A DNA stretch of 64,000 nt, from the NCBI GenBank assembly GCA_963832745.1, contig CAWHVC010000002.1, forward strand, positions 128,001 through 192,000, written 5' to 3'. Shown in pieces: positions 8,625 to 46,560 of this stretch. Source of the stretch: Candidatus Bathyarchaeota archaeon. Its GTDB lineage: Archaea; Thermoproteota; Bathyarchaeia; Bathyarchaeales; Bathycorpusculaceae. A program made the translations under genes and the position numbers. The stretch's first letter is position 1. Each line of letters opens with the position of its first letter. Under the pieces are notes generated by a model that was given only the letters and a program-made list of their open reading frames with translations, ran no database searches and was not told the origin of the DNA.

Positions 8625-8816
8625 ACACTTGCCTATCCGTTTTTCTTTGCGGATGTCATGTTAGTTTGTATTCTTTCATTTAAACCTTAAGTTACAACAT
8701 CTGCCAATCGCTGTTTTACCTACAAGTAATATTATTGAAAACCCGCCCTTTTGCGATTAGTTTATTTTTCCCAAACACACGCTTATTCTAAGGCAAGTTA
8801 CAGAAGCGAATTTTCG

Positions 8817-9887
8817 ATGAAAACCGAAAACGAAAAAATAACAATGCTGCATGGCGCAGGCGGAACAGTCATGCACGATTTAGTAAAAAATCACATTGTC
8901 AAAAATTTTGGCGGCTTAGACCTGTTCGCTGAAGTGCCACTGGAAGCTATGGATGACGCTGCAGCAATCGGTGACATAGTTTTCAAAAGCGATTCACACG
9001 CGGTTAAACCCATCTTTTTCCCCGGTGGAGACATTGGGCGTCTATCTATTTCGGGTACAGTAAACGATATTTCAGCTTTAGGCGCCGAACCATACGCTTT
9101 AGCATCCGGCTTCATCTTAGAAGAAGGCTTGCCTATGGCTGATTTGGACAGGATACTGGTAAGCATGCGCCAAACCATGATTGAAGCGGGCGTAGGCATA
9201 GTTACAGGCGACACAAAAGTTGTAGAAAAAGGCAGTTTAGGCGGCTGCGTCATGAACGTTTCAGGCTTAGGCAGACGTTCAGAAGCGCTTGAAAGCAACT
9301 TAAAAACGGTAAAAAGGTGCAGACCAAACTTCTCTGCAAGATGGACTCTTGACTCAAGCCTTTCTGTGGGGGACAAAATTGTCCTTTTAGGAACCATCGG
9401 CGACCACGGGTTGGCGGTTCTTTCGGCACAGCAGGGCCTGACTTTTGGAAGCGAAATAAAATCTGACGTTAAACCATTAAACAAAGTAATACAACGGGTG
9501 CTCGGTGAAGTCGGCGGCGTCGTGACAATGAAAGACCCAACGCGCGGCGGCTTAGCTGACGCCTTAAGCGAATTTACCGAAAAATCAAAGATTGGCATCT
9601 TAATTCAAGAAGACAAAATTCCAATCAGAAAGGACGTTGTTGCCGCCTGCGAAATGCTTGGTTTAGACCCGCTTGAAGTTGGAAACGAAGGAAAAATGCT
9701 CTTTGGCGTGGTGCCCGAGAAAGTTGAGGAGGTTTTGGCGTTTCTTAAGCAAACCAGCGAGGGTAAAGATGCACAAATTATCGGTGAAGTCACAGACGCT
9801 TTTAAGGGCGTAGCTATGCAGACGGTTGTTGGTGGTAAACGTATCGTCGCTAGACCAATTGGTGACCCAGTGCCGAGAATCTGCTAA
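8817..9887 (+). CDS. hypE: Hydrogenase maturation protein HypE
   Basis: HGAGG, FFPGGDIG, GDTKVV, DPTRGG, C-terminal PRIC. Confidence 0.96.
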   Translation: MKTENEKITMLHGAGGTVMHDLVKNHIVKNFGGLDLFAEVPLEAMDDAAAIGDIVFKSDSHAVKPIFFPGGDIGRLSISGTVNDISALGAEPYALASGFILEEGLPMADLDRILVSMRQTMIEAGVGIVTGDTKVVEKGSLGGCVMNVSGLGRRSEALESNLKTVKRCRPNFSARWTLDSSLSVGDKIVLLGTIGDHGLAVLSAQQGLTFGSEIKSDVKPLNKVIQRVLGEVGGVVTMKDPTRGGLADALSEFTEKSKIGILIQEDKIPIRKDVVAACEMLGLDPLEVGNEGKMLFGVVPEKVEEVLAFLKQTSEGKDAQIIGEVTDAFKGVAMQTVVGGKRIVARPIGDPVPRIC

Positions 9888-37528: not shown

Positions 37529-37756
37529 ATGGAAACATTTTTTGTATTCCTTGGATTCACAATGATTATTGTACTTGTACTTTTTTTACCAGTATTAATT
37601 GAACTTAAGAAACCAAAAGATATTGCACCGCGGAAAATAGTTGATTTCAAAACGGTCCTGTTATTGCAGACTAAAAAAGAAGTGGCGCCCAATAATCAGC
37701 CTTTAAATGGCACTTTGGCTGCCGCGGTTGAATCTTTAACTAACTTGGAAGTTTAA
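37529..37756 (+). CDS. Small single-TM hypothetical protein
   Basis: TM helix followed by LPVLIELKKPKD; AAGGA upstream of the ATG. Confidence 0.6.
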   Translation: METFFVFLGFTMIIVLVLFLPVLIELKKPKDIAPRKIVDFKTVLLLQTKKEVAPNNQPLNGTLAAAVESLTNLEV

Positions 37757-38793
37757 CTCTTCTTTAGCAGCAGGGAAGCGTTTTTCCATTGTTCCATAGC
37801 TAATGAAATGTGGCCCGAAGGTGACCCATAAATTGAATAAAACACGTAACAAAGATACGTGCATTGAGTGCAAGTCCTGTACTGCTCACGTAAATCATTG
37901 AATTTTTCACTCTTCCAGTTTTTAGGCAAATCGAAAATTGAGCCTGCAAAAGTGTGATTGTGGCAACCCGCAACTCTGCCCAGATGGTCCACGACTAGAA
38001 AGCTTTGAAGCGCTTTGCAATTCCAAGTTCTTTTTTCTTCAGCGTAGAGGCTTCTTAACGTTTTTAGAAGTTTGTCTGTCATTAAGATTCTTTTGTTGGT
38101 TTTCTTCATTTCTTTTAAAGTGTCGCAGAGTTTAACCATGGCTTCTTTATCGGTTATTATGAATTCGTCATTAGGTTTGCCGATGCGGAACAGTTGGTCA
38201 GGATCATCTGTCATGTCGTATGAGTAAAGGCAATACCAAACAGGGATACCCTTGCTCGTGAAGTAATTAGTGATATCCACGATTTCGTAAAGATTCATTT
38301 GAGAAATCGTTGGAGTAACGCTAACTTTTATTCCCTCTTTCTGCAGGGTTTCAACTGTTTTCATGGCGTTTTTCCATGCACCAGGCACATTTTTTATGTA
38401 ATCCTGTTTTTTCTCATCAAGGCTATCAATAGATAAAGCGACAAAATCAACTTTTCTTAAGAGATCAATTTTTTTTGCCGCCATGCTACCGTTATCATAT
38501 ACTGTAGTTACAAACCGTTGGGTAGCATAATCAATAATTTCTCCAATGTCCTCTCTTAGCAGTGGATCGCCGCCGGACAGAACAAGCTCAACTATGCCCG
38601 CGTCTTTCAGAATGTCCATGCCTTTTTTAATTTCTTCAGTTGAGAGTTCGTTTTTGTCTTGTTCTTTCCATACATTGCAGCCTAAGCATTTGTAATTACA
38701 TTTTCTTGTAATAAGCCATTGTGCATGGTGTGGTTTGCCGTGAACAAGTGAACGTGCTGCTACGTTTGCTGCCTTTTTTACTCCCATAACCAA
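37753..38793 (-). CDS. Radical SAM protein with SPASM/twitch-like C-terminus
   Basis: CNYKCLGC, SGGDPLL, C-terminal CKA...AGC...CTQCTYLC. Confidence 0.88.
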   Translation of the reverse strand: MVMGVKKAANVAARSLVHGKPHHAQWLITRKCNYKCLGCNVWKEQDKNELSTEEIKKGMDILKDAGIVELVLSGGDPLLREDIGEIIDYATQRFVTTVYDNGSMAAKKIDLLRKVDFVALSIDSLDEKKQDYIKNVPGAWKNAMKTVETLQKEGIKVSVTPTISQMNLYEIVDITNYFTSKGIPVWYCLYSYDMTDDPDQLFRIGKPNDEFIITDKEAMVKLCDTLKEMKKTNKRILMTDKLLKTLRSLYAEEKRTWNCKALQSFLVVDHLGRVAGCHNHTFAGSIFDLPKNWKSEKFNDLREQYRTCTQCTYLCYVFYSIYGSPSGHISLAMEQWKNASLLLKKS

Positions 38794-38978
38794 ATAGGGT
38801 CACTAGCCGCTTAAATTTGATATTAACACTTAATCAAATCTGGACTATAAAAACCATTATTAAAGTTCACCTGTTTGCTGTATCTGAATCTCTTCTTTAG
38901 GTGCTCCAACTAAGGCTTTATTCGGCTAAGCCTTATAGGCACAAATGTAAGTGTAAACTGAACGGAAGCTGGGTTCAA

Positions 38979-39710
38979 ATGGTGGATTCGATTGATGTTG
39001 TTCTGCTGACAAAGAACAGTGAGCGGGCGTTAGTCAAGTGTCTAGACTCACTTTACCAGAACGTTCCAGTCCACCAACTGATTGTAGTTGACGGGTACTC
39101 TACCGATGGCACTCTTTCAATAATAGAAACTTATAGCCAGAAACATTACAACGTAAAAGTAATTTTTGATAAAGGTACTCGCGCTTCAGCCCGACAAAAA
39201 GGAATCATGGCCGTGCAAACTGAATGGTTCATGTTCATAGACAGTGACGTCGTTTTATGCCGTGATTGGTTCCAAAAAACCATCAAAAACATTGACGCAG
39301 ATGTTGGGGCAGTTTGGGGGACTGAAGTCTGGTCTACCTTGAAAAACCCCAAAATGCTAAAACTATTCTTGGTTGTTACCCGCAAAATTTTCGAAGTACG
39401 CGGTGGCACACATGACACTTTAATTCGCTCTTCACTTGTTAAAGACATCCAAATACCCGCTGAGCTTCATGTTTTTGAAGATGCATACATAAAAGACCAT
39501 ATAACCCGTAAAGGCTACAAGGTAGTGGCTTGTTATGACCCTTTCTGTATTCATTTTAGACCTGATTCTGTTTGGACTTTAAAAGGCAGTTTAGGTTTAG
39601 TTGCTGAGGCACTACGGTTGGGTAGTCCCCATTTGATTTCGAAGCTGCTTTTGGCTTACGGCTTCTACACTGGCTACTCAGTTTATCAATTTTTTGCAAA
39701 CAACAAATAA
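38979..39710 (+). CDS. Glycosyltransferase family 2
   Basis: VVDGYSTDGT, FIDSD (DxD), FED. Confidence 0.9.
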   Translation: MVDSIDVVLLTKNSERALVKCLDSLYQNVPVHQLIVVDGYSTDGTLSIIETYSQKHYNVKVIFDKGTRASARQKGIMAVQTEWFMFIDSDVVLCRDWFQKTIKNIDADVGAVWGTEVWSTLKNPKMLKLFLVVTRKIFEVRGGTHDTLIRSSLVKDIQIPAELHVFEDAYIKDHITRKGYKVVACYDPFCIHFRPDSVWTLKGSLGLVAEALRLGSPHLISKLLLAYGFYTGYSVYQFFANNK

Positions 39711-39766
39711 AACAGTTGGGAAATAGCTTATTATTTTAATGCCCCTCTATATGCAAGCAATTCGGC

Positions 39767-40543
39767 GTGTTAAATTTGAGTAACTCTCTGGCGCAAATTG
39801 ATGTGGTGCTGCTTACCAAAAACAGCGAGTACCTTCTTGCAAAATGCTTGACCTCGATCTACCAAAACGTGCCAGTTCACAGGCTACTTGTGGTTGATGC
39901 TTACTCCACTGACCGAACTATTGAAATTCTAAAAAAATTCAACCAAAAACACCGCAACATAATAATCGTAAAAACCAATGGCACTCGTGCTCAAGCACGC
40001 GAAACAGGTATTAAACATGTCATCACCGACTTCTTCGCTTTCATAGATAGCGACGTTATACTGTGTAGGGATTGGTTCAAAAAAGCCTTCGCTGAAATGA
40101 AGGATGGTGTCGGTGCCGTGTGGGGTGTAAACATTGATGTAATCCCAAACGTTAAACAAAAATGGTTCTTGCTGTTGGAAAGCATGATTGCACGCCAAGG
40201 CTTCCGTTTACGAGGCGGAACACATGACACGCTTATCCGAAAAAGCGCTTTGGAGGGGTTACATATTCCTGAGGAACTTCATGCTTTTGAGGATGCTTAT
40301 CTTATTCGTTGGGTCGAAAAAAGAGGGTATAAAGCGCTTGTTGGCAGCAGCATCTATTGTTTGCATTATAAGCCGCCGACAAACTGGAGTCCCCAAAACG
40401 CCGTAGACCAAGCAATTGTCGAATTCAAATGTGGCATGCTTCACTCCCACCTTTATTCTTATGCCCTGTTCTATCCAGTGTTCATGTTTTACTGGTTTTT
40501 GCAAGTGCCGCTTAGCGGTTTTGGCGGTCAACTAAAAAAATAG
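39767..40543 (+). CDS. Glycosyltransferase family 2 (tandem paralog)
   Basis: VVDAYSTDRT, FIDSD; shares RGGTHDTLIR with the upstream gene. Confidence 0.9.
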   Translation: MLNLSNSLAQIDVVLLTKNSEYLLAKCLTSIYQNVPVHRLLVVDAYSTDRTIEILKKFNQKHRNIIIVKTNGTRAQARETGIKHVITDFFAFIDSDVILCRDWFKKAFAEMKDGVGAVWGVNIDVIPNVKQKWFLLLESMIARQGFRLRGGTHDTLIRKSALEGLHIPEELHAFEDAYLIRWVEKRGYKALVGSSIYCLHYKPPTNWSPQNAVDQAIVEFKCGMLHSHLYSYALFYPVFMFYWFLQVPLSGFGGQLKK

Positions 40544-40707: not shown

Positions 40708-41715
40708 TTACCGTGATAAGGCAGTCCAAAGTTGGTCGGTTACGGGTCTTGGCAGCGTCTGAGGGACGCCCGTCCTTGTTTCAAGGACACGTTTTTCTGG
40801 GTTGCTGTTGAATTCGCCTATGACTGCCGCGTAGATGCCCTGCTCTTTTAAGGCTGAAATGATTTTTTGGGTTGAGTCTGCTTCAGCTGCAATCAGTAAT
40901 GCGCCTGAACTTATGAGTTGCAAAGGATCAATGTCAAAGTGCCGACAGATTTCGGCTGTTTCAGGTTCTACAACAATTTTTGCTTCAAAAATCCTTATAC
41001 CTAAGCCTGCTGCGTCTGCCATTTCGTGCGCTCCGTTAAGGATGCCGCCTTCCGTTGGGTCATGCATCGCGTGCACTCCGCCTGCTCGGTAAGCTGTTAA
41101 GGCGTCTTTGACTACGCTGATTTGATTGTAAAATTCCTTAGCGCTCGCCAGAAACTGCTGGCTAAACACTTTTAACAGCTTTGCTTCTCGGTCTGTGGCT
41201 AAAATAGCAGTGCCTTCAATCCCAGCGCTCTTGGTTAAAATGAGTTTGTCGCCTGCTTTTGCGCCCGCCGCGGTTACGTATTTGCCTTTTTCGGTTAAAC
41301 CCATAATGCAGCAAACCACGATTGGGTTGGTTAAGCCGGGAGTGGATTCACAGTGTCCACCCACAATTGCGATGCCCAACTCTTTGGCTGCCTCTCCCAT
41401 TTGAGTGCTTATGGTTTCAACTATTTTGCTGTCAGAACCTTCAGGCAACATAATGCATGAAAAAATGAATGACGGCTCTACACCGAAAGTTGCCACGTCA
41501 TTAGCGTTAACGTTTACGGCTTCTTGACCGATACGTTCTACTGCACCTGTAATAGGGTCCATGGAGACGATGGCTGATTTGCCGCCGATTTCAAGTACTG
41601 CTCCATCAACACCTGTCCTAGGGCCAAGGATGACTTCTTTGCGGTCTGCCCCCAAATTTTTGAAAACTATGCTTTGCAGGATGTCTATTGGTATTTTTCC
41701 GGGCGGTAGCTTCAT
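40708..41715 (-). CDS. AIR synthase (PurM/HypE/ThiL-fold) family protein of unknown substrate
   Basis: GVDGAV, DPITG, NANDVA, VGGHCE, HDPTEGG; lacks the HypE C-terminal PRIC. Confidence 0.85.
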   Translation of the reverse strand: MKLPPGKIPIDILQSIVFKNLGADRKEVILGPRTGVDGAVLEIGGKSAIVSMDPITGAVERIGQEAVNVNANDVATFGVEPSFIFSCIMLPEGSDSKIVETISTQMGEAAKELGIAIVGGHCESTPGLTNPIVVCCIMGLTEKGKYVTAAGAKAGDKLILTKSAGIEGTAILATDREAKLLKVFSQQFLASAKEFYNQISVVKDALTAYRAGGVHAMHDPTEGGILNGAHEMADAAGLGIRIFEAKIVVEPETAEICRHFDIDPLQLISSGALLIAAEADSTQKIISALKEQGIYAAVIGEFNSNPEKRVLETRTGVPQTLPRPVTDQLWTALSR

Positions 41716-41729
41716 GCTTGTATCATCTG

Positions 41730-42266
41730 TTAAATCATGCTTTTAAGTTGTGGGAAAACACGGAGTACCGCATACGATAAAGGTACTGCTATTATTACTC
41801 CGACGAACATTTGGAACAGGTTAAACGGGACTTCTGCTAAGGCTGCGCCGAATCCGTAGCCTAAAACGAATTGTTCATAGAGGAAATAGCCGGTAACCAT
41901 TTCTAATCCGCCTACTAGAACGGCGATTGTTGCGCAAATAGCGTCGTTTTTGATGTGTTTTTTGAGTTTTCTGCTTAGCCACCCGACTATTGCGCCTTCT
42001 GTTCCTTTGATTACTAATGTTCCTGGGGCGAAGTAGCCGTATCCAAGGTAAATGTCTGATAGCATTGCTCCTATGCCTCCCGAGAAGGCGCCTACTGTGG
42101 GTCCAAAGATTAATGCTGCTGTGTAGATGATTATTTCTCCGAAGTTGAAGTAGCCGCTTGTAGCTGGGATGGGGAAAGCGAAGATTATTGTTGCTACTGC
42201 GACAAGTGCTGCGAAGACGGCTGTTAATGCTGCTGTTAGTGCTGGGCTTTTGTGTTTTTGTTGCAT
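41730..42266 (-). CDS. ECF transporter S component (HmpT/PdxU2-like)
   Basis: AALVAVAT..PIPATSGYFNFGE..GIGAMLSD..APGTLVIKG; ~6 TM. Confidence 0.85.
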   Translation of the reverse strand: MQQKHKSPALTAALTAVFAALVAVATIIFAFPIPATSGYFNFGEIIIYTAALIFGPTVGAFSGGIGAMLSDIYLGYGYFAPGTLVIKGTEGAIVGWLSRKLKKHIKNDAICATIAVLVGGLEMVTGYFLYEQFVLGYGFGAALAEVPFNLFQMFVGVIIAVPLSYAVLRVFPQLKSMI

Positions 42267-42298
42267 GGTTTTTACCTTGGTGTAGGCTGTGACTTTAG

Positions 42299-42340
42299 TA
42301 GTATAGTTGTGGCTATACTATCTAATAAATTTGTTTTCAC
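42299..42340 (-). promoter_or_regulatory. Promoter (BRE/TATA) with adjacent perfect 8-bp inverted repeat, candidate operator
   Basis: TAGTATAG-TTGTGG-CTATACTA at 42299-42320; minus-strand GAAAACAAA-TTTATTAG immediately upstream. Confidence 0.6.
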
Positions 42341-42354
42341 GCGACCCTTCTATT

Positions 42355-43752
42355 TTACATCAAGAGTTGAATCTCATCAAACGCCGCCAAAACCTTCCTA
42401 CCCCGCTCCGTAATACGGAAAAACCGTTTCCCCGAATCCTCATAACTAACCACCAAACCCTTAGCCTCCAACTCATTAAGATGCTGATACACTGCACCCC
42501 GCGTCATAATCTGACCCAACTGCTTCCATAAATCATAACCATACGAATCCGCCTCACTAAGCACCTTGAGAATCTTCTGCTTCGTACTCACCCTAGGCCC
42601 TAAACCCGCGGCTTTCTGCTTTTTTGTCAACGTCTGCAATACATCTGTAGCTTTAAGGCCGCTGCCCGTGATGAGGCAAACCACTGTGTCTTGAGCGGAG
42701 ATGTTGGTGGTTCTAAGTTTTTGGAGTGCTGCTACTGTGGCAGAACTTGCAGGCTCCGCAAAAACACCCTCCAATTTTGCAACTAACAACTCTGACGCCA
42801 AAATCTCTGGGTCAGATACTGTCAAAGCCAACCCATTTGACTCTTTAATGGCCTTTATCGCCAAGTCACTTTGCAATGGGTCACCAACAAGAATTGCAAG
42901 AGCTCTTGTTGATGTGCTACAGGCTTTCGATGATGTCTCTTCGGTTAGTTTTTTGACTATTGGTGCGCAGCCTTCTGTTTGGACACCAACCATCCGCGGC
43001 AACTTGCCTGTTAATCCGAGCTGTTTGAGTTCTTTAAAGCCCTTCCAAAGCGAGTAAATAGTTCCGCCGCTTCCCATAGAAACAATAATCCAATCCGGAA
43101 CCCCCAACTGTTCAAAAACCTCGTAAGCGATTGTTTTTTGTGCTTCAATTGCGAGCGGGTTGATTTCTGCGGTGGCTTGATACCAACCTGTTTCCTTCGA
43201 TAGCGTAATGGCTTTTTGGATGGCTTCGTCGATTATGTCGCCTGATTCTTCAATAACTGCGTCGTAAGCAATCATCTGCGCCAACTTGCCTACATCAACC
43301 ATTTTGGGGACTAAAACATGGCATTGCAGCCCCGCTTTAGCTGTATACGCCGCAAGTGATGCGCCCATGTTTCCGTTAGTTCCGCAAATTACGGCTTCAA
43401 AGCCTTGATCAATCGCGTTTGAAGTCAAAAAAGCAGCTGCACGGTCACGATAACTGTTTGTGGGATTGCGTGTTTCATCTTTCAAGTAAAGTTCATTGAG
43501 TCCAATGGCTTTAGCAAGCCTTTCAGCTTTGTGCAGTGGAGTTACGCCTTCACCTAAACTGACAATGTGCCTGACAGGCGGAAGCATTGGTTGATACTTC
43601 CAGAATCCTTCAAGCCCCAGCAACTTAAACGCCGACGCCTCTGGCAAATCTGCTGTGTATTCCAGTGTGCCGCCGCATTTTTCGCAGTTACTCCGTAGTG
43701 GTCTAACGGGGTATTCTGTTTGACAGTTGGTGCATTTGAGTGTTGGTTTCAT
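42355..43752 (-). CDS. Threonine-synthase-like (fold type II PLP) protein with Lys-to-Arg at the PLP site, fused to a C-terminal PadR-like winged helix
   Basis: N-terminal Zn ribbon, SLGEGVTPL, NPTNSYRDR (canonical NPTGSFKDR), EPASSA, ITGSGLK; tail SYGYDLWKQL..TRGAVYQHLNELEAKGLV..FRITERG. Confidence 0.85.
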   Translation of the reverse strand: MKPTLKCTNCQTEYPVRPLRSNCEKCGGTLEYTADLPEASAFKLLGLEGFWKYQPMLPPVRHIVSLGEGVTPLHKAERLAKAIGLNELYLKDETRNPTNSYRDRAAAFLTSNAIDQGFEAVICGTNGNMGASLAAYTAKAGLQCHVLVPKMVDVGKLAQMIAYDAVIEESGDIIDEAIQKAITLSKETGWYQATAEINPLAIEAQKTIAYEVFEQLGVPDWIIVSMGSGGTIYSLWKGFKELKQLGLTGKLPRMVGVQTEGCAPIVKKLTEETSSKACSTSTRALAILVGDPLQSDLAIKAIKESNGLALTVSDPEILASELLVAKLEGVFAEPASSATVAALQKLRTTNISAQDTVVCLITGSGLKATDVLQTLTKKQKAAGLGPRVSTKQKILKVLSEADSYGYDLWKQLGQIMTRGAVYQHLNELEAKGLVVSYEDSGKRFFRITERGRKVLAAFDEIQLLM

Positions 43753-43894: not shown

Positions 43895-46063
43895 TTGATT
43901 ATTTTGGAAAAAAATGAAAAGAAATCTCAATCAAAAACAATTGATAATCTTGAATCCTACAGAGTTGAATCCAAAAACCAGCAATTAACAACCAATACAG
44001 GCGTAAAAATTAATGACACCGATAACTCACTGCGAGCGGGTCCTCGTGGACCGACGCTTTTGGAAGATTTCCATTTTAGAGAAAAACTGACGCATTTCGA
44101 CCATGAACGCATACCTGAAAGAGTTGTCCACGCAAGAGGCTCAGGCGCGCATGGCTACTTCCAAGTTTACAAATCAATGAATAAATATACTAAAGCAAAG
44201 TTTCTGCAAGACCCCGAAACAAAAACGCCCGTTTTCGTTCGTTTTTCAACTGTTGCTGGTTCTCGAGGTTCAGCGGACACTGTGCGCGATGTCCGAGGTT
44301 TTGCCACACGATTCTATACTGAGGACGGAAATTATGACTTAGTTGGAAACAACATCCCCATCTTCTTTATACAAGATGCTATTAAATTTCCCGACTTAAT
44401 CCATGCTGTTAAGCCTGAACAGGATAACGAGATTCCTCAAGCAGCCACTGCGCATAACACTTTTTGGGATTTTGTGGCTAATAACCCTGAAATTGCTCAC
44501 ATGATTATGTGGGCTATGTCTGACCGGGCGCTTCCCCGAAGTTTTCGTATGATGGATGGTTTTGGAGTAAACACTTACCGCTTTGTTAACGAAGAGGGTA
44601 AATCGTGTTTTGTAAAGTTCCATTGGCGTGCAATGCTTGGTGCGCATTCGTTGGCATGGGATGAAGCCCAGAAAATTGCTGGTAAAGACCCTGACTTTAA
44701 TCGTCGTGATCTTTGGGAAGCTATTGAGATGGGTGATTTTCCTGAATACGAGTTTTCTGTGCAGATTATTGATGAGGCGGATGCGGAAAAGTTTGATTTT
44801 GATATTTTGGATGCTACAAAGATTTGGCCTGAAGAACTGGTGCCCTTGCAGCCTGTTGGTAAGATGGTTTTGAACCGTAATCCTGACAATTTTTTTGCGG
44901 AAACTGAGCAGGTGGCTTTTTGTCCTGCGAATGTTGTTCCGGGTATTGATGTTAGTGATGATCCGTTGTTGCAGGGTAGATTGTTTTCGTATTTTGATAC
45001 GCAGCTTACACGTTTGGGTGGGCCGAATTTTAATGAGATTCCTATTAACAAGCCGGTGGTGCCGGTTGTTAATAATCAACGTGATGGTTTTCATCAAATG
45101 AATATCAATAAGGGTTCAGTGGCGTATTACCCTAACTCTCTTAATGATAATTATCCTCGGGCTGGATTGGACTCCAAGGCGGGTTACGTGCATTACCCTG
45201 AAAGGGTGCAAGGGGATAAGGTGCGGGTTAGGAGCGAGACTTTTCAAGAGCATTTTGGTCAGGCGATTTTGTTCTGGAACAGCATGACGGAACCCGAAAA
45301 ATATCATATTATCAAGGCGTTTCATTTTGAAGTTGGAAAAGTTACTGATATGGTTACGCGCCAAAAAATTGTTGATATGTTTAACAATGTGGATAATGAA
45401 CTTGCTAAAGCTATCGCGTTAGGTGTGGGTGCTAATCCGCCAAAACCTGTTGAACGCCATATGCCTAAGGTTTTGGTGTCTAAGGCTTTGTCGCAGGATA
45501 ATCCGCAACGTCGCAGCGCTAAAACCCGTAAAGTAGCAATTTTTATGATGGACGGGTTTAATGATGAAGAGTTAATGTTGGTTAAGGATTCTTTAACGGC
45601 GGCGGGGGTTCATGTTACGGTGATTTCGCAGTACTTGAGTCCAATTAAAAGTTTAAACGGCAAACAATTTGTTCCTGACAGCAACTTTGTTGGCGCTGCA
45701 AGTTCAGTTCTTTTTGACGCAATTTATATTCCGGGTGGTGAGGCAAGCATTGACGCTTTGGCGCATCAAATGTTTGTGTTGGAGTTTCTAAATGAAGCTT
45801 ATAAGCATTGTAAGGCGATTGCGGCTTCAAGTGAAGGCATCGGGTTATTGCAGCAAACGGTTAGTGAGGCTAAACTTGCATTTTCAAATGCTGTGGTGTC
45901 GGATAAGGGTGTGGTTACTTGTATGGGTGCGCCGACTGAAGAGTTTACTGGGGCTTTTTTGGATGCGATTGCTAAGCATCGGCATTGGGTGCGGGAGAAA
46001 ACCGAGGATGTTCCGGTTGAGCTTCAGGCTGTGCTTGGTGAATGGTTAACTAAAGAGCAGTAA
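43895..46063 (+). CDS. katE: Large-subunit monofunctional catalase (HPII/clade 2) with C-terminal flavodoxin-like (DJ-1/PfpI-like) domain
   Basis: FDHERIPERVVHARG, RFSTVAGSRGSADT, LQGRLFSYFDTQ. Confidence 0.95.
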   Translation: MIILEKNEKKSQSKTIDNLESYRVESKNQQLTTNTGVKINDTDNSLRAGPRGPTLLEDFHFREKLTHFDHERIPERVVHARGSGAHGYFQVYKSMNKYTKAKFLQDPETKTPVFVRFSTVAGSRGSADTVRDVRGFATRFYTEDGNYDLVGNNIPIFFIQDAIKFPDLIHAVKPEQDNEIPQAATAHNTFWDFVANNPEIAHMIMWAMSDRALPRSFRMMDGFGVNTYRFVNEEGKSCFVKFHWRAMLGAHSLAWDEAQKIAGKDPDFNRRDLWEAIEMGDFPEYEFSVQIIDEADAEKFDFDILDATKIWPEELVPLQPVGKMVLNRNPDNFFAETEQVAFCPANVVPGIDVSDDPLLQGRLFSYFDTQLTRLGGPNFNEIPINKPVVPVVNNQRDGFHQMNINKGSVAYYPNSLNDNYPRAGLDSKAGYVHYPERVQGDKVRVRSETFQEHFGQAILFWNSMTEPEKYHIIKAFHFEVGKVTDMVTRQKIVDMFNNVDNELAKAIALGVGANPPKPVERHMPKVLVSKALSQDNPQRRSAKTRKVAIFMMDGFNDEELMLVKDSLTAAGVHVTVISQYLSPIKSLNGKQFVPDSNFVGAASSVLFDAIYIPGGEASIDALAHQMFVLEFLNEAYKHCKAIAASSEGIGLLQQTVSEAKLAFSNAVVSDKGVVTCMGAPTEEFTGAFLDAIAKHRHWVREKTEDVPVELQAVLGEWLTKEQ

Positions 46064-46131: not shown

Positions 46132-46560
46132 TTGCAGTTGATGATTATGAGTATAAAAGAAGACCCAATTAAACTCCACAAAGACGCTAATGCTTTGATG
46201 GAAAACGGCAAATATGTTGAAGCACGTGAACTTTTCTCCAAAGTAGCTGAACTTTACTTTAAAGGGCAAAACTATTTCGGCGCTGCTGAAATGAACTACA
46301 AAGCCGGCGAATGTAGCGTAAACCTGAAAGAGTATCCCCAAGCCGTTGAATCCTTCAATAAAGCTGCAGATATCGCTTTAAACAAGGGTTTTGACCGTTA
46401 CGGGTTAAGCGCGTTGGAACAAGCCCGAGACAGCCAAAAAGCGGCAGGTAACAGCAAAGAAGCGGAAGAAATCGATGCCCGCATAAAAGAAATTAATGAC
46501 AAAATCAACAAGCAGAATGCTGTCGGCGACGAAGAATCGTCTTTTTCAGTGTTCTCTTAA
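46132..46560 (+). CDS. TPR/SNAP-like helical repeat protein
   Basis: Repeated A/G-x-Y-x-x-A helical pattern. Confidence 0.7.
   Translation: MQLMIMSIKEDPIKLHKDANALMENGKYVEARELFSKVAELYFKGQNYFGAAEMNYKAGECSVNLKEYPQAVESFNKAADIALNKGFDRYGLSALEQARDSQKAAGNSKEAEEIDARIKEINDKINKQNAVGDEESSFSVFS

Follow-up and report, generated by a model that had tools for sequence, protein, structure and literature searches.

A lysine-less threonine synthase fold joined to a winged helix: a proposed vitamin B6-sensing regulator of TACK and Asgard archaea

ThiR of Archaea is a thiamine regulator with the enzyme-like ThiN domain as its sensor, and as such it unites the fold of a biosynthetic enzyme with a DNA-binding domain. 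PdxR, MocR and GabR are one-component regulators with an effector domain that has the fold of a pyridoxal 5'-phosphate (PLP) enzyme and is no longer catalytic; in all three a GntR-type winged helix-turn-helix (wHTH) forms the N-terminus, and the fold-type I aminotransferase-like domain has a PLP-binding lysine. According to one article (PMC5320631), PdxR regulons in Bacteria hold pdxST, pdxK and pdxU, and the MocR regulators are stated there to be absent from Archaea. Here we describe a locus in a stretch of 64,000 nucleotides (the window, G000:C2:128001-192000) from the 3.02-Mb, 99% complete genome of a Candidatus Bathyarchaeota archaeon, in which open reading frame (ORF) calling places three genes in tandem on the minus strand (window positions 40708-43752). 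They encode a 465-residue protein that couples a threonine synthase (ThrC) fold to a wHTH, the S-component of an energy-coupling factor (ECF) transporter (ecfS), and a protein of the PurM fold. We consider it probable, though well short of certain, that the 465-residue protein is not a threonine synthase and is instead a one-component regulator that senses B6/PLP and controls a B6 uptake operon. The observations made in silico concern its domain make-up, the loss of the catalytic lysine, the conservation of the pocket and of the operator, the linkage of the genes and the phyletic patterns.

The family to which this protein belongs (the fused family) is best read as an archaeal counterpart of bacterial PdxR, analogous but not homologous to it. 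As in PdxR, MocR and GabR, a former PLP-enzyme fold would act as the effector domain of a one-component regulator; as in the reconstructed PdxR regulons (PMC5320631), the family is linked to pdxST, to a B6 transporter of the PF07155 family and to a salvage enzyme, and in some genomes it shares with PdxR the divergent arrangement with pdxST. The differences are equally clear. The fused family is archaeal and homologous to MocR/PdxR in neither domain: its DNA-binding domain is a PadR-type wHTH at the C-terminus, with no GntR match in Pfam, and its effector domain is a fold-type II PALP domain in which the lysine has been lost from 69 of 71 aligned members. Since the Schiff-base lysine is lost, PLP would bind non-covalently, unlike in MocR/PdxR. 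The family resembles ThiR in combining a biosynthetic-enzyme fold with a DNA-binding domain in an archaeal vitamin regulator, but it differs from it in fold, vitamin and regulon. With ThrC proper (TIGR00260) it has the fold and the zinc-ribbon N-terminus in common; its identity to archaeal ThrC is 35-40%, and nearly all residues of the pocket are shared. It differs in that it lacks the catalytic lysine, carries the additional wHTH and is encoded outside the thr cluster in a genome that has a true thrC elsewhere. We found no description of a ThrC-wHTH regulator, or of an archaeal B6 regulator, in the open-access library searched.

The gene for the 465-residue protein occupies 42355-43752 (minus strand), and the close named homologues of its product are from Bathyarchaeia. 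Pfam recognizes a PALP domain, typical of fold-type II PLP enzymes and here the proposed sensor, at residues 64-363 (42664-43563, minus strand; E 7.8e-74), and a PadR domain (PF03551) at residues 394-456 (42385-42573, minus strand) with 45.4 bits against a cut-off of 27. Toward the N-terminus, four cysteines (C7, C10, C23 and C26; 43675-43734, minus strand) form a zinc-ribbon-like, putatively metal-binding motif that is 88-94% conserved among fused and canonical relatives alike. An AlphaFold2 (AF2) model computed with 71 relatives reached a predicted local distance difference test score (pLDDT) of 92 and a predicted template modelling score of 0.85; residues 378-389, preceding the wHTH, are modelled as a disordered linker, and the tail as helix-helix-helix-wing-helix with a beta wing at a pLDDT of about 95. 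The best solved relatives of the PALP domain in the PDB are the threonine synthases 2zsj, 2d1f and 6cgq.

Aligned to 2zsj and 2d1f, the protein reads NPTNSYRDR at the position where threonine synthases have NPTGSFKDR, so that arginine (Arg102) occupies the place of the lysine that forms the PLP Schiff base, and the phosphate-binding glycine loop SMGSGGT is present at residues 225-231. A preliminary description of this locus, drawn from the letters of the sequence, had already noted the arginine, the loop and the PadR-like tail, and all of these hold; the CGT codon that it placed at about 43448-43450 is indeed there, at the corrected position 43447-43449 (minus strand). Because no fewer than two substitutions separate CGT from AAA or AAG, Arg102 is not a one-base error. 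Furthermore, among the closest database clusters (72-100% identity) both Pfam domains and an arginine at the lysine position were found in 120/120, and the same arginine occurs in 30/30 of the best fused loci of a 201-genome sample of the phylum.

The wider family was approached through a search over 1.84 billion representatives clustered at 50% identity, in which the best 150 matches were classified and the wHTH tail was detected by an iterated hidden Markov model. Seventy-one of these matches combine a non-lysine residue with the tail and 60 combine lysine with its absence; the mixed classes are small, with three matches having both lysine and tail (two genuine and one a fragment) and five having neither, most of them fragments, while in the remaining 11, with or without a tail, the lysine-position motif was missed by the search pattern. 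The expectation that loss of the lysine would go together with the wHTH fusion is thus borne out by the two large classes. When 71 full-length fused proteins were aligned with 58 canonical ones, the lysine column held K in 58/58 canonical proteins and a residue other than K in 69/71 fused proteins, the latter distributed over L19, I15, R14, V7, M4, T4, K2, F2, S1, Y1, N1 and A1. Judged from these alignments, loss of the lysine is a trait of the family and not a private mutation.

The remainder of the pocket tells a different story from the lysine column. Almost all other columns that are at least 80% conserved in the enzymes are equally conserved in the fused proteins, and the pocket residues shared between the 71 fused and 58 canonical sequences are N96, P97, T98, D103, R104, G127, N128, K206, T207, E211, G227 and G229 (both in the glycine loop), Q258, E333, P334, T362, G363 and G365. 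As the pocket is conserved while the lysine is lost, the pocket is under selection and the covalent attachment of PLP is not. Among the positions that do differ, Ser125 is 94% conserved in canonical and 40% in fused proteins; at position 201, which we take to be the substrate-phosphate arginine of ThrC, 27% of the canonical proteins have Arg, whereas the fused ones have Phe or Leu. The window's genome also encodes a canonical, lysine-bearing thrC (NPTGSFKDR), on contig C3 between thrB (homoserine kinase) and hom (homoserine dehydrogenase), whereas the regulator gene lies outside any thr cluster; the preliminary description had asked for such a second copy, and this is where it was found.

In a tree of the ThrC domain alone (FastTree), the fused proteins make up one side of a single branch with a Shimodaira-Hasegawa-like support of 87, which points to a single origin. 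They divide into two well-supported clades, an 'Arg clade' of 19 representatives that includes the window's protein and both of the members that keep the lysine (P0122 and P0124), and a 'hydrophobic clade' of 51 representatives. Named members come from Bathyarchaeota, Aigarchaeota, Lokiarchaeota and Promethearchaeota, such that the family is present in TACK and Asgard archaea, and all are annotated either as threonine synthase or as a PLP-dependent enzyme. For the fused family as a whole, the database name 'threonine synthase' is very probably a misannotation. The 465-residue protein passes the thrC model TIGR00260 (206.8 bits, cut-off 167.1), and it falls below the cut-off of NF004170 (PRK05638, likewise named 'threonine synthase'; 398.7 bits against 421) while covering positions 2-441 of its 442. 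As these 442 positions span the wHTH tail, NF004170 was evidently built on the fused family itself; its cut-off is passed in just 6 of the 201 genomes, and some fused loci reach 700 bits. As a separate observation, in genus g24 and a few other genomes the matches to the fused-gene profile each contain one in-frame TAA or TAG while the open frame is about full length, and the stop perhaps lies at an end of the match (G127:C9:28079-29488, G055:C14:20034-21434, and matches in G079, G135, G006, G071, G023, G130, G157 and G171).

A homodimer joined through the ThrC domain was predicted with a score of 0.84 against 0.00 for the best control, with a contact agreement between runs of at least 58% and a partner pLDDT of at least 82; the mark used for such predictions is reached by 20/30 solved pairs and by 1/23 single chains. 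This pass may come from likeness only, since dimers of threonine synthase have been solved.

Between the regulator gene and ecfS lies a spacer of 88 nt, and it is here that the candidate operator is found. A TATA-like box, AAATTTATTAGA (42321-42332, minus strand), which has AT-rich counterparts at the same position in orthologous loci and would belong to the ecfS promoter, is followed directly on its 3' side by the perfect inverted repeat TAGTATAG-N6-CTATACTA (42299-42320), 32 nt 5' of the ecfS ATG. Perfect palindromes of the 8-N6-8 form are expected by chance about 0.001 times in the 71-position intergenic stretch (71/4^8), and in a scan of the 3.02-Mb genome that allowed up to four mismatches the exact palindrome occurs a single time, with no other site closer to it than three mismatches. 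A relaxed scan for AGTAWAG-N6-CTWTACT with at most two mismatches returned one perfect site; five sites with one mismatch were rejected as operators, being inside ORFs or at no plausible promoter. These relaxed scans gave no credible second site in the window's genome and none upstream of the regulator gene, which would have pointed to a wider regulon or to autoregulation. The regulon in this genome is a single operon, and of the regulon originally envisaged it is this one site, at the ecfS operon, that stands.

The candidate operator is conserved across families. In 14 Arg-clade loci, the stretch from an AT-rich box to the ecfS start contains the form AGTAWAGT-N4-ACTWTACT, and in family f10 the element takes the form TTAAAGT-N4-ACTTTAA; the regulators at operator-bearing loci are 34-65% identical to the window's. 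Three genomes from the same genus or the same family keep the syntenic pair of ecfS and the purM-like gene and have neither the palindrome nor the regulator. The TATA-like box, palindrome, S-component and AIR-synthase-fold gene listed in the preliminary description are all present, and the regulator-ecfS pair with its promoter palindrome is kept across families at the above degrees of protein identity. Archaeal promoters have a characteristic spacing between the TATA box and the transcription start, and by this spacing the palindrome, which abuts the TATA-like box, lies over the expected start site, a position that suggests repression.

Two further sets of palindromes were encountered. The 12-bp palindrome CCTATATATAGG, from the hydrophobic clade, occurs once per genome, between the regulator and pdxS in G127 and between the regulator and ecfS in G034, which belongs to another family; in G037 and G069 a variant marks the ecfS/purM-like locus, which is unlinked there. 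In G037, CTCATATATGGG has a third site, which lies inside a gene for an ATP-binding cassette (ABC) ATPase and which we read as chance. Five genomes of families f21 and f16 in which the regulator gene ends a gatD-gatE operon were also scanned. Palindromes resembling AGTATAG-N6-CTATACT number 5-9 per genome in those of genus g33 (family f21; G017, G025 and G033) against 0-2 for a reversed control, and 1 and 3 in the two f16 genomes. We fetched 20 of the g33 sites (L114-L133) and rejected them as operators, almost all being in coding regions; two pairs lie at the same place in orthologous genes.

The operon that would be controlled from this promoter begins with ecfS (41730-42266, minus strand), which encodes a 178-residue S-component (PF07155, E 7.4e-36). 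Compared with all PDB sequences, it has a sole match at E<=0.1, namely 4hzu_S (E 1e-19, over the whole length). Chain S of 4HZU is HmpT of Lactobacillus brevis, from which pyridoxamine was extracted (PMC4860826); PdxU and PdxU2/HmpT, two of the only three B6/PLP transporters named in the consulted portion of a review (PMC9997740), belong to PF07155/COG4720. The window's protein retains the equivalents of HmpT E41, Y120, N140 and Q143, which show little or no variation among 32 archaeal orthologues, so that four of the five named pocket residues are kept. Unlike HmpT, the archaeal S-component has lysine in place of His84, and many orthologues contain an insert: about two-thirds of the archaeal HmpT-like S-components carry approximately 75 residues between helices four and five (e.g. 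L037:10020-10778 and L053:10268-11014), which the window's 178-residue protein lacks. On the strength of this sequence kinship we propose that the window's S-component imports a B6 vitamer.

In 27 of the 47 loci examined, ecfS is no more than 3 kb away from the fused gene; it is almost always the immediate neighbour, placed downstream or divergently. Family f10 has five genomes with the fused gene, and in all of these (L037-L040 and L046) a two-domain ABC ATPase follows ecfS; the 248-residue protein after it, at the place expected for EcfT, has no Pfam match even at E 0.01. The window's genome has three CbiQ/EcfT genes.

Across the genomes, the distribution of the fused gene and of ecfS points to vitamin B6. 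In genus g24, all five PdxS-bearing genomes have the fused gene divergent from pdxS-pdxT, both confirmed by Pfam, with starts at most 62 bp apart, and sister genomes of that genus show the same synteny without pdxST. EcfS and PdxS are nearly mutually exclusive in the 201 genomes: both occur in 10, EcfS without PdxS in 98, PdxS without EcfS in 81 and neither in 12, counts that we treat as patterns and not as statistics. The fused gene is present in at least 66 genomes; among these 66, EcfS is found in 63 and one or the other of EcfS and PdxS in 65, the exception being a genome that is 70% complete; PdxS is present in 10 of these genomes as opposed to 81/135 of the others. Profile searches of the window's genome returned no match for PdxS, PdxT, PdxJ or Phos_pyr_kin (the PdxK/ThiD family), although the last profile was found in 14/14 control genomes. 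As the genome nonetheless encodes PLP enzymes, together with three EcfT modules, the organism must import B6.

The third gene (40708-41715, minus strand), separated from ecfS by 14 nt, encodes a 335-residue protein of the PurM fold with the AIRS and AIRS_C domains (PF00586, 61.8 bits; PF02769, 90.6 bits). It belongs to an unassigned subfamily, scoring below each of the relevant NCBIfam cut-offs (HypE 126/251.6, ThiL 91/184, SelD 80/125 and PurM 35/236), and the window's genome encodes a true ThiL (254 bits, cut-off 184), HypE, SelD, PurL and PurM elsewhere. A second paralogue of 337 residues (G000:C5:258126-259139, L080) is likewise below the cut-offs, with 88 bits on SelD, 85 on HypE and 83 on ThiL. 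Relatives at 31-82% identity are encoded in 144 of the 201 genomes, PdxS-bearing families included, and in 0/26 of family f9. The commonest conserved neighbour of the subfamily is the S-component (10/23 loci, in five families); one genome has the purM-like gene immediately 5' of pdxS-pdxT and in the same orientation, and in a further genome 2.7 kb separate pdxST from the ecfS-purM-like pair. Such neighbourhoods fit an ATP-dependent step on an imported vitamer. It has been suggested that the protein is a vitamer kinase, and in its fullest form the proposal would make the three genes a complete new archaeal B6 salvage system, with a lysine-less ThrC-fold PLP sensor, a PdxU2-type importer and a PurM-fold B6 kinase in place of PdxK; we regard this larger claim as possible but doubtful. 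To our knowledge, no protein of the PurM fold is known to act as a kinase on a hydroxymethyl group. In two genomes of family f5 (L049:10363-11085 and L052), the gene after ecfS is not purM-like and encodes instead a 240-residue protein with only the C-terminal domain of NAD kinase, which may be an alternative kinase.

Taken at the strength given above, the proposed regulator would work as follows. The ThrC-fold domain, having kept its PLP pocket and shed the lysine of the covalent tie, would be the sensor, and the C-terminal PadR-type winged helix would be the output; a homodimer formed through the ThrC domain would bind TAGTATAG-N6-CTATACTA. Given that this operator separates the TATA-like box from the start of the ecfS-purM-like operon, its occupancy should block the initiation of transcription. 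The ligand would most likely be reversibly bound PLP (or a different phosphorylated B6 vitamer), such that the uptake operon would be shut when B6 is plentiful and open when it is scarce. The HmpT/PdxU2-like S-component would then import a B6 vitamer, and the ATP-using PurM-fold enzyme probably acts on the imported compound. Elsewhere in the archaea, members of the fused family adjoin, and probably control, pdxS and pdxT. In this scheme we infer the binding of PLP and of DNA, repression with ligand, and the substrate of each protein of the operon.

Several considerations weigh against a B6-sensing repressor and have to be set beside it. Loss of the lysine is not obligatory for the fused family, since P0122 and P0124 keep it; that PLP would bind in the absence of the lysine is an assumption; and the direction of control is taken from the position of the operator alone. 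The motif CCTATATATAGG of the hydrophobic clade resembles a TATA box, and as an operator it is a lead only. On the side of the transporter, the assignment of pyridoxamine to HmpT comes from one study and was preceded by a proposal that HmpT transports hydroxymethylpyrimidine (HMP; PMC4860826), and the replacement of His84 by lysine in the archaeal family touches a named pocket residue. The relatives behind the co-occurrence counts are non-independent, and a Fisher test on these counts therefore gives a p value that overstates the association. Last, some fused genes have neighbours that give no pointer to B6, namely a canonical thrC in three loci (G021, G101 and G197) and, in four others (L042, L045, L048 and L055; families f21 and f16), the gatD-gatE operon for the Glu-tRNA-Gln amidotransferase, of which the fused gene is the last member, overlapping gatE by 4 nt and with no ecfS nearby.

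These neighbourhoods are also what one would expect if the ThrC-like domain sensed an amino acid or an intermediate of the threonine pathway (threonine, O-phosphohomoserine or a PLP-amino-acid aldimine) and the regulator controlled an import related to amino acids. The domain is, after all, derived from threonine synthase, and nearly the whole active site is conserved, beyond the part that contacts PLP. An external aldimine of PLP with an amino acid requires no lysine, which is established chemistry, and the lysine-less pocket could hold PLP in this form. The partner transporter, however, matches HmpT/PdxU2 and no other solved S-component, it is complementary to PdxS across genomes, and the adjacency to pdxST and a shared, genome-unique motif point to B6; Ser125 and position 201 are not the same in fused and canonical proteins, and where the fused gene adjoins thrC, a past tandem duplication may be the reason. 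We judge an amino-acid sensor to be unlikely. If, on the other hand, the domain were simply a PLP enzyme still active without its lysine (or with arginine), the wHTH being a moonlighting or autoregulatory addition, then the passing of the TIGR00260 cut-off, the otherwise intact active site and the two members with lysine would all be accounted for. In the lysine column, though, 12 different residues occur; most are Leu, Ile and Val, which are incapable of forming or replacing a Schiff base. A canonical thrC is present, and the operator is found at the promoter of the transporter and not at the protein's own. An active enzyme is in our estimation extremely unlikely.

Thiamine salvage deserves separate mention, as a thiamine precursor stood beside the B6 vitamers among the ligands first put forward. 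In that case the S-component would import HMP or thiamine, the PurM-fold protein would be a ThiL-like kinase (e.g. converting HMP phosphate to HMP pyrophosphate), and the regulator would sense a pyrimidine precursor. ThiL phosphorylates a phosphate ester, so the chemistry would be that of ThiL, on whose model the PurM-fold protein scores 91 bits; the genome is without the ThiD/PdxK family, and HmpT was first named for HMP (PMC4860826). Yet the genuine ThiL is encoded elsewhere, and in the window's genome there was no match for ThiC (PF01964), TMP-TENI/ThiE (PF02581) or Phos_pyr_kin (PF08543), ThiN not having been searched, which would leave imported HMP without a use; the organism is probably a thiamine auxotroph as well. 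Moreover, the sensor has a PLP fold, and in every examined locus the linkage is to pdxST and not to thi genes. We therefore consider thiamine salvage very unlikely. B6/PLP is favoured over a thiamine precursor by the adjacency to pdxST, the HmpT/PdxU2-like S-component and the complementarity with PdxS, as well as by the genuine ThiL elsewhere and the lack of ThiC, ThiE and ThiD matches.

The surroundings of the three genes offer some additional observations. Genes for a radical SAM/SPASM protein and two family-2 glycosyltransferases (37753-40543) flank the operon and are syntenic in L053, L056 and L093-L095; this flank is probably plain synteny, outside the unit. Divergent from the regulator gene, at 43895-46063 (plus strand), lies a gene for a large-subunit catalase (Catalase and Catalase_C/DJ-1 domains, E 2e-187). 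In a genome of the same genus (L093, G190:C96), the homologue of a tetratricopeptide repeat (TPR) protein encoded at 46132-46560 of the window directly adjoins ecfS, and because of this direct contact the regulator, the catalase and the operator together constitute an indel of approximately 4 kb between close relatives. A genuine HypE (350 bits, cut-off 251.6) is encoded at 8739-9884 (plus strand), and hydrogenase maturation genes are thus nearby.

For the proposed PLP-fold pseudoenzyme serving as the sensor of a one-component regulator, widespread in TACK and Asgard archaea and systematically misannotated, no earlier description was found in the open-access library searched. If our reading is correct, the sensing of B6 would have evolved independently in archaea, where MocR/PdxR regulators are stated to be absent, and an enzyme would have become a sensor by the removal of one residue. 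It would also correct a systematic error of annotation, extending to a curated NCBIfam equivalog model that bears the name 'threonine synthase'. Should the PurM-fold protein prove to be a vitamer kinase, this would be new chemistry for the PurM fold, in archaea that are without the PdxK/ThiD family. Two problems named in the B6 literature, the identity of B6 importers and of alternative B6 kinases, are made testable by the locus, and among uncultured TACK and Asgard archaea the fused gene would serve to mark B6 auxotrophy.

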